Below, in pieces: positions 2,956 to 10,280 of a stretch of DNA of 64,000 nucleotides. The stretch is from Promethearchaeota archaeon (lineage in GTDB: Archaea > Asgardarchaeota > Lokiarchaeia > Sigyniarchaeales > SOKP01): contig JBHLLT010000001.1 in assembly GCA_048938855.1 (NCBI GenBank), positions 448,124-512,123 on the forward strand, given 5' to 3'. The position numbers and the translations under genes are program-made. Numbering within the stretch: position 1 is the stretch's first letter; the number at the start of each line of letters is the position of its first letter. A model generated the notes under the pieces. The model made no database searches. It was not told the origin of the DNA and saw only the letters and a list, made by a program, of their open reading frames with translations.

Positions 2956-3079
2956 TGCTCTTATTCTACTCTAAATCTAGATTATAATGTTATTTTGTAA
3001 ATTATATAAACTAGAAATTATATAATTTTTGTTTACATTTTATTCATTTAATCGGATATTACATTCAATTGATTTTATC

Positions 3080-3466
3080 ATGCTTAAAAAATTTTTCAAA
3101 AGAAGAATTAATGAGATACATCAAAAATATAAGGATAAAAAACTTCTGCTTGTAGATGATATCTCTAACTTTTTTGGATTAGAATCATCAGGAGTTTTGA
3201 AGGTTCGGGGGAATGGGGTTTTATTACTTACAGAAGAAGAATTATTTTTTGGAATGTGGAAACCTAAAATAGACTTAGTAATTTCTATTAAATCTATTAT
3301 TGAGGTTTTAAATCCAAAATCCCATATGCATAGATCGATGTTTCAACCTTTATTGAAGGTAGTTTTTACTAATGATAATGGTGTAGTCGATTCAGCTGCT
3401 TGGTATGTACGAAAATTAGATGATTGGAATAAAGCCTTTAATAAATTAATTCTGAAAGATAGATAA
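3080..3466 (+). CDS. Small GRAM/PH-like fold protein
   Basis: GNGVLLLTEEELFF followed by ISIKSIIEV beta pattern and a C-terminal helix with Trp (LDDWNKAF); ATG at 3080 preferred over TTG at 3029. Confidence 0.55.
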   Translation: MLKKFFKRRINEIHQKYKDKKLLLVDDISNFFGLESSGVLKVRGNGVLLLTEEELFFGMWKPKIDLVISIKSIIEVLNPKSHMHRSMFQPLLKVVFTNDNGVVDSAAWYVRKLDDWNKAFNKLILKDR

Positions 3467-6056: not shown

Positions 6057-6707
6057 ATGGGGTTAAAAAAGAAACTATTTCCACGTAAAAGTAAAGAAAA
6101 AGACGACTTAGTAGCAAAAGCTAAAGGTCATATTCATAGATTGAATATGATGAACAAGAATTATAATAAAAGAGCAGAAATAAGCAGAAAAAACGCAAAG
6201 ATTGCTTTAAAGCGGGGTGAAAAGGATCGTGCAAAAACTTATTTAGTACAATATAAGGCATATCAAATGAAAGTTGACCGTAGTAACAATATCCGATTAA
6301 AGATTGAGAGACAGATTCAAGCAATTGAAGAAGGAATGCTTATATCACAAACAGGTGATGTAATGGGGGGGATTAGAGATGAATTAGAATATATAGCAAC
6401 AAAAGCATCCCCTACAAAAGTTGCTGAGATAGCTGAAGATTCTGAAGCATATGTTGCAGAAATCGAAGAAGCAGCCGACATTTTAGGTGGTGATCCAGAA
6501 ATTGATCTTGCAATTGATGTTACTGATGAATTAAACCAACTTGAAACGGAAATGCTCCTAGAACAAGGGGGAACTATGCCTGAAATTCCTGCTGATGATC
6601 TACAATATATACCTGAATATGATCTTGAAGAAGAGGAAGCTGAACTCAAATCGAAAGATCAACTAAAAGACGAGATCGATAAACTTAGAAAAGAATTGGA
6701 AGGATAA
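6057..6707 (+). CDS. Snf7 family ESCRT-III protein (Vps20/Vps32-like)
   Basis: Basic N-terminal helical hairpin (AKIALKRGEKDRAKTYL), acidic C-terminal half, DELNQLE, MPEIP (MIM2-like), terminal amphipathic helix. Confidence 0.85.
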   Translation: MGLKKKLFPRKSKEKDDLVAKAKGHIHRLNMMNKNYNKRAEISRKNAKIALKRGEKDRAKTYLVQYKAYQMKVDRSNNIRLKIERQIQAIEEGMLISQTGDVMGGIRDELEYIATKASPTKVAEIAEDSEAYVAEIEEAADILGGDPEIDLAIDVTDELNQLETEMLLEQGGTMPEIPADDLQYIPEYDLEEEEAELKSKDQLKDEIDKLRKELEG

Positions 6708-6767: not shown

Positions 6768-7787
6768 CTACTTTAATTCTTTCAAAGCAAGAACCATATT
6801 TTTTACTTTATTGATTGCAATTTCATATCCATCTTTTTCTCCAAAAACTTTTAAAGGAAGGAAACCACAATCTGGTTTAATAATTAGATTCTCTCTTCCA
6901 TACAAATCGATGCCCTTTTTGATGAATTTTTTGATAGAATCAATTTTTTCTACATAATCTTCAATTTTCTTATTCAATATTGGTGTAAATTTAGATTCAA
7001 CAGTTCCCATTGCTAATAATTTATCTGTTCCTTGGAAATGTTTTTTCTCATATATCTTAAAATTTTCCTGATTTGTGGTAAATTCATGATCTAAAATATT
7101 TACATTTGTTTTTAAGAGAAGGTCTCGTAGATAAGGACTAATTCTTCCACAAACATGTATTGAGGATAATCCTTTTATTCCAGATATAGCTTTATTAATA
7201 GTTTTAATGATAAAATCCTCTGTATGAAATAAAATCCTCTTCCCTATTAATAATCCTAGTACAGGTTCATCACATGAAATAATGTCTATATTCATTTCAC
7301 TATAAGCAGTTGCTATTTGCTTAATTACTTGAGCAAACGTATCAACAATCCAATCTACCATTACTGCTCTTGGTTCTTCGAAAATTATTGGTTTTAAACC
7401 TTTAGCAATATCATTTTTTAGTATTGTTTCGAATGCTAAGGTGAAGGGTCCGGTTATGCAAGCTTTTGTACCTTGTATAGAACTCTTTAGTTCTGGACGT
7501 TCAGTAAAATAATTGGTAATAAATTTTCCATATTCAAGGGCAATAGGTTCCTTAGGTTTATTAAATTCACCTGATAGATAAAATTTATCATCAATTTCTT
7601 CTAATTGAGGGACAATCTTTGATAATGGAGACAAAAATTGATAGGTCATGGATAAAAGTTGAGGGTAACAAGGGTAATCAATGCCAATTTGAATTAAATC
7701 ATCAAAAACCTTTAGCATATTGTTTAAAGTATTTTCTAAAGGCCAGCTTCCAACTAAAGTTGTAAATAATCCTTCCTTCTTATCCAT
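6768..7787 (-). CDS. Core (single-barrel) methionine synthase, MetE C-terminal/MesA-like
   Basis: TTLVGSWP, ITGPFTLA, DEP, Zn ligands IHVCG and PDCG. Confidence 0.8.
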   Translation of the reverse strand: MDKKEGLFTTLVGSWPLENTLNNMLKVFDDLIQIGIDYPCYPQLLSMTYQFLSPLSKIVPQLEEIDDKFYLSGEFNKPKEPIALEYGKFITNYFTERPELKSSIQGTKACITGPFTLAFETILKNDIAKGLKPIIFEEPRAVMVDWIVDTFAQVIKQIATAYSEMNIDIISCDEPVLGLLIGKRILFHTEDFIIKTINKAISGIKGLSSIHVCGRISPYLRDLLLKTNVNILDHEFTTNQENFKIYEKKHFQGTDKLLAMGTVESKFTPILNKKIEDYVEKIDSIKKFIKKGIDLYGRENLIIKPDCGFLPLKVFGEKDGYEIAINKVKNMVLALKELK

Positions 7788-7865: not shown

Positions 7866-9827
7866 CTAACTATAAAAGCGCCTTTTATCAAAATTCCTAC
7901 TGTTTTTTTTTAGAGAGTCAATCTCTTCCAAATTTTCTTGTAAATCACCAATTTTTTTTTCAATTAAATAGATTTCTTTTTGAAGGTTTTTAAAAGTTTT
8001 AAAATAATCTACTTCAGAAATTATTCCTTGATCGAATTTATTGTCGAGTTTTTTCAACGTTTCTTTTAAACTATATCGTTCTTTATCTAATTCGAGCATT
8101 TTTTTATGTTTTTCTTTATCAATTTTAAACAACTTCCGTTTATATCTATAAGAATTATCTCGTGGAATATAATCCGAATCAAACAAGTCAGTTAAATGAT
8201 TCCTATTATAATCTTGAAACACAGCTTGGTTATCTAGGAAATTACCATCTTTCTCATTAAAATCTTCTATAAATTGGTTCTGATAATGTGGATTTAAGTT
8301 ATTATTAACATTTATTCTTTGGGCTCCATAATTTTGATACTGATTTGGATTTTGTAGGTTTTGAGAGAAGAAATTATTGTCATTATGATTTGGCATTTGA
8401 GAATTAAAGTTAAAGGGAGGATTTTGGTTAGGATTAGGACGATCATGGGAGACTCTATTAATTCGCTGATATATATTCGAAGCTCCCGGAAAATTTAGCC
8501 ATGGTTGAGCACTATTTTGGGGATTTTGAAACTGAGCAGGTGTTCGAGATGCAATGTTTGCTATTTGGTTGGGATGAACACCAAAAGGATAAGTTAAGTC
8601 TTTATTTGGACTATAAAAATTTTCAAAGTTTTTATTATATTGACATTTTATACTAAAAAATGAGTTAATACTCTCTTCAATGAAATTTGTTAAATCATTT
8701 AAATCTAATTCAATATATTGTAGTTTTTTTGCTGATTTTTCATCATATATAGTAGTCTCATCGAAAGATCTTGCCAAAAGGATATATTCAATCACTCGTG
8801 AAACCGCCTTAGAGGGTAATGTAAATTCATATTTCCCATAGTCGAATTCAATATAAAGCTTTTTGAAGACTTTACCTTTTTCTTTAATTCTTGTTAAATC
8901 TTGAACAGGAGCTTTAAAAATTAATTCGATTTTATTTTTCTTTACACCATATTTATGTATAAATGAAAGATCAAAATTTGTTATGAATAAGATACCTTTA
9001 TCTTTCTTGTATTTGTCATGCGTATTTAATCCATTTGTCAATTTAGCATAAATTGCATATACAGGTTTTTCCCCCTCAGCAAGGTGAAGTATTTTATTGT
9101 AACTTTCAAAGTAATGTTTAACTTTATCTATAAAACTTAAATTTTTTTCAAATGTATCAAAACCATCATTAAATGTTTCTAAATTATTTTTTATAAATTC
9201 ATCAATTAAATTGAAACTACGGGATAAATTTTCAAAAAGCCCCTCAATGATATTTATATTTGAGTTTGGTTGGGCATAAATATCAAAAAAATATTCTTTA
9301 TTTTGATTTACTTGATGAAATTGAACATTAACCTTTTCAAATAAAGTATTTTGAAGATAATTAAATAATTTAAAAAATGCTAATAAATCTGATTCCATTT
9401 GGGGAAAATGGTAATATTTATTAGGAGGATCTCTCACTTCCTTTATTTTAGATTGATAAAGATACAATTTATCAAGAATTTGTTTCAATGGATCGATGAA
9501 TGAGCGTGTTTTTTTAATTAATTCTAAGAAATTCTTTTCTAAATCTTCTTTTTTTTCATAGATATTTATAATTTGATGTGAATCACATTTTGGACAGGAT
9601 TTTAAGCGCTGATTGACTTTAACAACATTTTCTGCTCCACATTCCTTACAAACTTTCTTACTTTCAGAATTTAGCATATCTATATTTTTCGATTTGCACA
9701 CTTGACAAATATAGAAATCCACTTTTTTTTCATGAAGACATTCCGGACAACAACTGGATCCACATTCTTCACAATAATAAGCTAACTTCACATATCTGTG
9801 ACAAAATCTACATACTTGTTCTGTCAT
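7866..9827 (-). CDS. Multidomain protein: Cys-rich Zn finger(s), coiled coil, GRAM/PH-like domain, N/Q/P-rich region, C-terminal steadiness-box/SHOCT-like hairpin
   Basis: Long ORF (ATG at 9827; the track extends it to TTG at 9845); six CxxC pairs; KGILFITNFDLSFI; GIISEVDYFK hairpin. Confidence 0.7.
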   Translation of the reverse strand: MTEQVCRFCHRYVKLAYYCEECGSSCCPECLHEKKVDFYICQVCKSKNIDMLNSESKKVCKECGAENVVKVNQRLKSCPKCDSHQIINIYEKKEDLEKNFLELIKKTRSFIDPLKQILDKLYLYQSKIKEVRDPPNKYYHFPQMESDLLAFFKLFNYLQNTLFEKVNVQFHQVNQNKEYFFDIYAQPNSNINIIEGLFENLSRSFNLIDEFIKNNLETFNDGFDTFEKNLSFIDKVKHYFESYNKILHLAEGEKPVYAIYAKLTNGLNTHDKYKKDKGILFITNFDLSFIHKYGVKKNKIELIFKAPVQDLTRIKEKGKVFKKLYIEFDYGKYEFTLPSKAVSRVIEYILLARSFDETTIYDEKSAKKLQYIELDLNDLTNFIEESINSFFSIKCQYNKNFENFYSPNKDLTYPFGVHPNQIANIASRTPAQFQNPQNSAQPWLNFPGASNIYQRINRVSHDRPNPNQNPPFNFNSQMPNHNDNNFFSQNLQNPNQYQNYGAQRINVNNNLNPHYQNQFIEDFNEKDGNFLDNQAVFQDYNRNHLTDLFDSDYIPRDNSYRYKRKLFKIDKEKHKKMLELDKERYSLKETLKKLDNKFDQGIISEVDYFKTFKNLQKEIYLIEKKIGDLQENLEEIDSLKKNSRNFDKRRFYS

Positions 9828-9850
9828 GTTAATGCTAAAACCCAACCAAA

Positions 9851-9986: not shown

Positions 9987-10280
9987 CTATTTTATGATTT
10001 TAACCTTTTTTCCTAAGGCTTGACCAGGAACTCCCGCTTTTTTAAAGTGGGCTCTCACAGCACCATTATTTCCATGAGCTCGAGTTATTAGTCCTCTCAA
10101 TTCTTTACCTGTAGAAGAATTCCAAACAACGGTTCTACCGATTAGTTTATTTGCTTCTTTTCTAGTTTTTATATTAGAAAATACAATAATACAGTGTTTC
10201 TGGTGAACTGTATGGCGTCCACGCTTATAATTTGAAATTACACCTTCCATGCCTAAAATATTCAATTTGTTTAAAGACAT
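9987..10280 (-). CDS. rpl35ae: 50S ribosomal protein L35Ae
   Basis: NYKRG, LIGRTVVW, GLITRAHGNNGAVRAHF, PGQALG. Confidence 0.95.
   Translation of the reverse strand: MSLNKLNILGMEGVISNYKRGRHTVHQKHCIIVFSNIKTRKEANKLIGRTVVWNSSTGKELRGLITRAHGNNGAVRAHFKKAGVPGQALGKKVKIIK

Follow-up and report, generated by a model that had tools for sequence, protein, structure and literature searches.

The gene at positions 7866–9827 on the minus strand of the window (the whole 64,000-nucleotide stretch of Promethearchaeota archaeon DNA that was analysed) encodes a 653-amino-acid protein that is almost certainly a Lokiarchaeia member of the Asgard Znr_CC_PH_SB family (cog.011556). It probably acts as a Vps23-type ESCRT-I component lacking the UEV domain, in which a C-terminal steadiness box (SB) would sit on Vps28 and a PH domain on the anionic membrane. 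The architecture, which had not been recognized in the initial annotation, is already known: a 2024 study named it Znr_CC_PH_SB after its three zinc ribbons, coiled coil, PH domain, and SB, and regards the family as a likely ESCRT-I component that was probably ancestral in Asgard archaea and whose PH domain is membrane-associated (Makarova et al., 2024, PMC10936438). The query adds no new architecture; what is new in the present analysis is the prediction of the Vps28 interface, the counts of linkage to Snf7, the lysine loops of the PH domain, and the contrast in linker length together with the linker motifs.

Gene Identity and Family Membership

The open reading frame was judged to be real, with its ATG start codon at 9827; a TTG lies in frame at 9845, but near homologues begin at or close to the ATG. 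Every motif quoted in the initial annotation is present in the 653-residue product, and the features described below stand above chance. A protein search with the query returned 242 homologues, of which those carrying a taxon name were nearly all labelled Asgard archaea, and a deeper search reached relatives down to ∼20% identity. End to end, the query is 54% identical to Lokiarch_16740 of GC14_75 (KKK44603.1, 650 aa), of which it is the orthologue by sequence comparison and which was given in a 2018 review as the Asgard counterpart of Vps23/TSG101. Lokiarch_16740 was equated by length and gene order with the cog.011556 gene of GC14_75, which the supplementary gene table of the 2024 study gives as 1953 nt (650 aa) between L35AE and MetE/Vps20 (Makarova et al., 2024, PMC10936438). 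The two proteins have the same domain order, and their genes share the order dipeptidase C69, L35Ae, this gene, MetE, Vps20-type ESCRT-III, and DHQS.

AlphaFold, given 89 sequences, modelled residues 1–405 and 561–648 of the query with confidence and residues 409–560 as disordered. A similar layout can be read from the published sequence of ThorAB25_08990, the Thor "SB" protein used in yeast two-hybrid (Hatano et al., 2022, PMC9192718), which also has a Cys cluster, a helical region, a PH motif, and a C-terminal hairpin; its linker is shorter than that of the query and not N/Q-rich, and its locus tag adjoins the Thor ESCRT-III, Vps4, Vps25, and Vps22 genes.

The Steadiness Box and Its Predicted Pairing With Vps28

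The C-terminal helical hairpin (aa 561–648; 7884–8147, minus strand) carries a Vps23-type steadiness box, in agreement with the initial annotation, which had named SHOCT as the lookalike. Pfam Vps23_core (PF09454) matches aa 567–621 (7965–8129) with an E-value of 7e-4 in the whole protein and 4e-5 when the hairpin is searched as a fragment, its score of 20–24 bits being just below the curated cut-off of 26.8. Comparison of the family profile with the PDB placed yeast Vps23 in the top three positions (E 4e-5 to 2e-4), with TSG101 (E 0.011) and Vps28 (E 0.02) lower down, and the hairpin also aligns gap-free with the one at the N-terminus of the Vps28 family of Loki. A SHOCT identity was rejected after the hairpins of the query and three relatives gave no match to PF09851 at E-values up to 0.1.

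In the eukaryotic ESCRT-I headpiece, Vps23 is joined to a hairpin at the N-terminus of Vps28. A complex of the query SB (aa 556–650) with the genome's own Vps28, which had been proposed as a check in the initial annotation, was predicted with a score of 0.72, as against 0.01 for the best of three controls; the mark applied to such scores is one that 58 of 80 solved pairs and 2 of 110 mismatched pairs attained. At least 94% of the contacts were shared between runs, the partner pLDDT was at least 81, and the predicted interface sets SB helix 2 (aa 609–624) against Vps28 residues 8–45. Since ESCRT-I heads have already been solved, this pass may stem from likeness to, or memory of, those structures and is not proof of binding; the model nevertheless makes it likely that the SB binds Vps28. 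Yeast two-hybrid results suggest that free-standing SB proteins of Loki and Thor may bind Vps28 and that the free-standing SB protein of Loki binds Vps22 (Hatano et al., 2022, PMC9192718).

It is extremely improbable that the hairpin is instead a generic SHOCT-like or coiled-coil oligomerization element in a protein unrelated to ESCRT. Bacterial proteins combining PH and SHOCT domains do exist, one such cluster occurs among the structural neighbours, and the SB score lies below the Pfam cut-off, but the lack of a SHOCT match in the four hairpins, the position of Vps23 as top PDB match, and the Vps28 complex all speak for a steadiness box, as do two observations described below, namely a conserved ESCRT-III neighbourhood and one lineage that fuses the zinc-helical-PH module to a Vps22-type core.

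Hairpins resembling the SB were also observed elsewhere. Four other long open reading frames of the genome (L111, L112, L113, and L114, on G000 contigs C64, C34, C71, and C28) end in such hairpins, with E-values of 3e-5 to 0.013 against the family SB profile, and are possible competing partners of Vps28; one of them has an IFT52 GIFT-like N-terminus and one a helix-hairpin-helix start. Similarly, a DUF4062 and TIR protein (P0248) has a C-terminal SB-like hairpin that matches query aa 580–635. Because SB-like hairpins terminate several unrelated proteins of the genome, the hairpin by itself is no mark of an ESCRT-I core subunit. With Vps23/TSG101 the query shares a C-terminal SB placed after a Pro-rich disordered stretch and the (predicted) pairing with Vps28; in contrast to Vps23/TSG101, it has no UEV (no Pfam match, the N-terminus being the zinc module) and no long stalk leading straight into the SB, and it carries a zinc module, a helical bundle, and a PH domain.

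The Zinc Module

The N-terminal zinc module (aa 5–88; 9564–9815, minus strand) was delimited by Cys conservation and fold matches and consists of three zinc-binding units with 12 cysteines, as in the Znr_CC_PH_SB family; these cysteines are 90–100% conserved in 89 relatives with 17–78% identity to the query. The published description speaks of three zinc ribbons (Makarova et al., 2024, PMC10936438), whereas the present model points to a cross-brace finger into which a single ribbon is inserted, an arrangement already guessed in the initial annotation and plausible from the zinc module folded alone. In that model, ZZ, U-box, and B-box fingers are the matches of the outer part (∼45 residues across 1–90) and RNA polymerase zinc ribbons those of the inner hairpin (34–77), with Z-scores that are all ≤5.1 and thus too unspecific to assign a finger family. 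If the ligands are paired according to the aligned ranges of these fold matches, Cys 6, 9, 19, 22, 27, 30, 78, and 81 look like an outer B-box/ZZ-like cross-brace finger, into which a zinc-ribbon hairpin formed by Cys 41, 44, 60, and 63 is plausibly inserted.

FYVE fingers have the spacing CxxC..CxxCGxxxCxxC..CxxC, and the FYVE-like finger and ESCRT-0 affinity claimed in the initial annotation are the part of it that did not hold. The likeness of the query finger to B-box/ZZ/RING cross-brace fingers is at least as great as that to FYVE: among 81 members, Pfam matched B-box in 74, double zinc ribbon in 64, and FYVE in 15, the last weakly (best E 4e-4). The R(R/K)HHC patch that binds PI3P and the WxxD motif are both found in 0 of the 89 relatives, and on these motifs a FYVE lipid sensor was rejected; three fold searches with the zinc model also gave no FYVE structure among their 50 best matches, a result that alone excludes nothing. 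A true FYVE-type lipid sensor acting with the PH domain, as an archaeal forerunner of Hrs/Vps27, is therefore very improbable in spite of the cross-brace Cys spacing and the weak FYVE matches, and no Vps27 orthologue was found in Asgard archaea according to the 2024 account (Makarova et al., 2024, PMC10936438). The likeness to Hrs/Vps27 (zinc finger, coiled coil, and P/Q-rich tail) is superficial, as the query has no VHS or UIM (no Pfam match), no PSAP, and no FYVE lipid motif but has a PH domain and an SB, which are absent from Hrs; it is not a homologue of Hrs/Vps27.

The zinc module is fairly likely to bind protein and not to act as a lipid sensor. An unlikely proposal as to what it binds is that it forms a B-box/RING/ZZ-like site for ubiquitin, E2, or protein N-termini, and so provides a cargo-reading arm in those Lokiarchaeia that have no canonical UEV-SB Vps23. 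The best sequence and fold matches are indeed to RING, B-box, ZZ, U-box, and UBP fingers, and no canonical UEV-Vps23 was found in GC14_75 (Hatano et al., 2022, PMC9192718); a Pfam search of the present genome for UEV likewise gave no match, but neither did the controls. Besides the unspecific fold scores, this proposal is countered by Thorarchaeia, which retain the family even though no ubiquitin genes were identified in them (Hatano et al., 2022, PMC9192718).

The Helical Region and the PH Domain

The long helical region noted in the initial annotation was recovered in the AlphaFold model as three long helices (aa 89–132, 144–181, and 188–242) with pLDDT >90, together spanning aa 89–242 (9102–9563, minus strand). 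This coiled-coil or helical-bundle region has no specific family match but fits the coiled coil by which Znr_CC_PH_SB proteins are defined; considered as part of a possible BAR-PH arrangement, it gave generic coiled-coil matches only. It leads into a domain of GRAM, GLUE, or bacterial-PH type (aa 243–357; 8757–9101, minus strand), assigned by fold and Pfam, the PH fold being adopted by residues 238–358 in the model. The GRAM/PH domain of the initial annotation thus stands. The best fold match is the PH-like domain of Lam6 (Z 13.2, rmsd 2.5, 107 aa), followed by the PH-GRAM domain of MTMR2 (Z 13.0) and human GLUE (Z 11.5), and Foldseek matched yeast Vps36 GLUE with an E-value of 3e-4. Among the PH fragments of 72 members, Pfam found bPH_3 in 38, GRAM in 23, and Vps36 GLUE (PF11605) in 17; bacterial PH and GRAM score equal to or above GLUE, and the domain falls in the same fold clade as Vps36 GLUE. 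A DH-PH (RhoGEF) identity, ranked first by Foldseek with an rmsd near 20 Å, was rejected because the PH part alone aligns well. The PH domain is followed by two helices (aa 358–405; 8613–8756, minus strand) that are well modelled by AlphaFold.

Two conserved Gly-Lys loops occur in the PH domain, at aa 294–299 and 317–323, and contain at least two K/R residues in 86 of 89 and 89 of 89 relatives, respectively. On balance, the domain is more likely than not a lipid anchor for the membrane, although with less assurance than the SB is assigned to Vps28. It shares with the GLUE region of Vps36/EAP45 a GRAM/GLUE-type PH fold, a faint resemblance in sequence (E 0.03 to yeast Vps36), and the presence of zinc fingers in one chain with the PH domain; however, the zinc module of the query precedes the PH domain, whereas the NZF fingers of Vps36 lie inside GLUE, and the query has no tandem winged-helix core. 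The protein would work like Vps23 at one end and like Vps36 GLUE in the middle, and it belongs to neither family.

Other PH-like sequences were seen in passing. A stand-alone small open reading frame at 3029–3466 on the plus strand of the window, 2.6 kb from the Snf7 gene, has a GRAM/PH-like motif and weakly resembles the family PH domain (E 8e-4), with no Pfam match. Clusters of Bathyarchaeota and Chloroflexota proteins in the ESM Atlas contain helical-plus-PH modules of like shape, one of these clusters being annotated GRAM / Vps36_ESCRT-II.

The N/Q/P-Rich Linker

Between the paired helices and the SB hairpin lies a linker (aa 406–560; 8148–8612, minus strand), delimited by the AlphaFold model and by composition, which agrees with the low-complexity region described in the initial annotation. 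N, Q, and P together make up 46% of residues 405–530 against a genome background of 13%, the highest such content of any 126-residue window among 1659 long open reading frames of the genome, and the model is disordered here, with pLDDT <50 at 409–560. The linker measures ∼115–430 residues in the closer Loki-type relatives versus 8–65 in many distant members. Two stretches within it, aa 486–502 (8322–8372, minus strand) and aa 543–549 (8181–8201, minus strand), are 75–100% conserved in 44 close relatives and are, from their sequence conservation, possible binding motifs. The motif P(S/T)AP is absent from the query and occurs in 2 of 89 relatives. Neither the Loki-specific N/Q/P linker nor its motifs are mentioned in the available part of the 2024 account (Makarova et al., 2024, PMC10936438).

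Gene Neighbourhood and Distribution in Asgard Archaea

The gene is convergent with an ESCRT-III gene of the Snf7 family (6057–6707, plus strand), which corresponds to Lokiarch_16760 by gene order and by a visible likeness in sequence, and a MetE-like gene (6768–7787, minus strand) lies between the two; the gene for ribosomal protein L35Ae lies upstream (9987–10280, minus strand), and both flanking genes have the same order in GC14_75. The source genome also carries Vps28 (G000:C49:50117–50734), as well as a Vps22 with ESCRT-III nearby, the intervening open reading frames being read as Vps25 and Vps4. The synteny suggested for checking in the initial annotation was examined in 34 Asgard genomes sampled across families. 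The full N-terminal module was present in 26, and Snf7 lay within 10 kb in 16 of these 26, which represent 14 families, with the two genes tail to tail in 14 of the 16. The rough chance expectation for such linkage is ∼2% per genome, related genomes not being independent. Two of the 10 unlinked genomes gave no Snf7 match at all, and the link has been lost in at least one genome of the same genus that consists of a single contig (G189). At E ≤1e-8, 352 of 400 Asgard genomes matched the family profile, weak SB-only matches included; weak matches near 1e-9 are mostly SB-only and to other proteins. As 7 of the 34 sampled genomes had SB-type matches only and 1 had none, some lineages may run ESCRT without a Znr_CC_PH_SB protein.

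Three further genes near ESCRT loci were observed. A membrane protein resembling the CAAX protease Rce1, with a double zinc ribbon at its N-terminus, is encoded at 1903–2955 on the minus strand of the window, 3 kb from Snf7. A zinc-ribbon and multi-pass membrane protein, Yip1-like by eye, is encoded directly 5′ of the genome's Vps28 (L001:489–1391), and a small GTPase gene lies directly 3′ of the ESCRT-III/Vps4/Vps25/Vps22 cluster (L010:5827–6381).

The breadth of this distribution bears on a different and less likely role, that of an ESCRT-0-like cargo adaptor that does no more than plug into ESCRT-I and is not a fixed core subunit; the query would then compete for Vps28 with other SB-tailed Asgard proteins, and its linker would cluster cargo or form condensates like HRS. 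Multidomain SB proteins are indeed seen as functional analogues of ESCRT-0 in the 2024 account (Makarova et al., 2024, PMC10936438), and such a role is consistent with the further SB-tailed open reading frames of the genome and with the long linker and its two conserved motifs. However, the gene occurs almost universally, mostly as a single copy, and keeps its ESCRT-III link across many families, which fits a core part, and no Hrs hallmark is present. The shortness of the linker in many non-Loki members also means that it cannot be central to the function of the family. The preferred identity remains that of a Vps23-type ESCRT-I component.

A Vps36-Like Fusion in One Asgard Family

In three proteins (P0212, P0260, and P0261, 64–77% identical to P0212), the SB is replaced by Vps22-type tandem winged helices, so that the layout of zinc module, helical region, PH domain, and winged helices is that of Vps36. 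Fusion-type genes occur in the MAGs H2M.186, H2M.176, and DZ1B.307 (cut by a contig end in DZ1B.307), all of one Asgard family; the fusion loci are L014:8001–9806 (P0212), L015:8001–9818, L016:4159–5613, L012, and L013, with Snf7 nearby in L012, L013, and L014. In H2M.186, the fusion is near Snf7 and ∼6 kb from the UEV-Vps23, Vps28, and Vps22 genes. The fusion-bearing genomes retain a separate plain Vps22, and no SB-ended family member was seen in them. A search for more long winged-helix fusions returned only the three known. Vps22-type winged helices also terminate two further long Asgard proteins (L060:13–2109, G310; L075:1450–2607, G307), whose helical N-termini are unrelated.

By sequence, the fused winged-helix part matches Vps22/Snf8 structures (E 6e-7) and gives no Vps36 match, and the second lysine loop is lost in the fusion proteins. 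A Vps22 tree that includes the fused winged-helix part puts it on a long branch apart from the Vps22 that these genomes carry separately; as its bootstrap is unsettled and it contains no eukaryotic rows, this tree cannot place the fusion relative to Vps36. An independent fusion is more likely than Vps36 ancestry because the winged helices are nearer to Vps22/Snf8, the second lysine loop is lost, and the fusion has been observed in a single family. It is rather improbable that the GLUE domain of eukaryotic Vps36 derives directly from the family PH domain, Vps36 having arisen when the module moved from the SB plug onto a second copy of Vps22, with the Loki linker possibly an HRS-like condensing arm. 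One Asgard family nonetheless made the swap from SB to Vps22 while keeping a separate Vps22, so such a step is possible inside archaea.

Proposed Role in Asgard ESCRT

As a UEV-less Vps23-type component, the protein is predicted to pair through its C-terminal SB with the N-terminal hairpin of Vps28, like Vps23 in the eukaryotic headpiece, while the two lysine loops of the PH domain would dock the complex on anionic membrane lipids and the helical bundle may serve as a spacer. Protein partners or cargo would probably be bound by the zinc module and the linker motifs, and Vps28 would pass on to Vps22/Vps25 and ESCRT-III/Vps4. The membrane-targeting ESCRT adaptor put forward in the initial annotation thus survives in part: it matches the published view, the ESCRT-III neighbourhood, and the predicted Vps28 complex, and only its ESCRT-0/FYVE component falls away. 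The Znr_CC_PH_SB protein would thereby supply the membrane targeting done in eukaryotes by the GLUE domain of Vps36 and by ESCRT-0. Of these eukaryotic membrane recruiters of ESCRT, Vps36 was not found in Asgard archaea (Hatano et al., 2022, PMC9192718), and Vps27 is reported as absent in the 2024 account (Makarova et al., 2024, PMC10936438). The Znr_CC_PH_SB family, which the literature surveyed describes through prediction and two-hybrid only, is the best candidate for bringing Asgard ESCRT to membranes.
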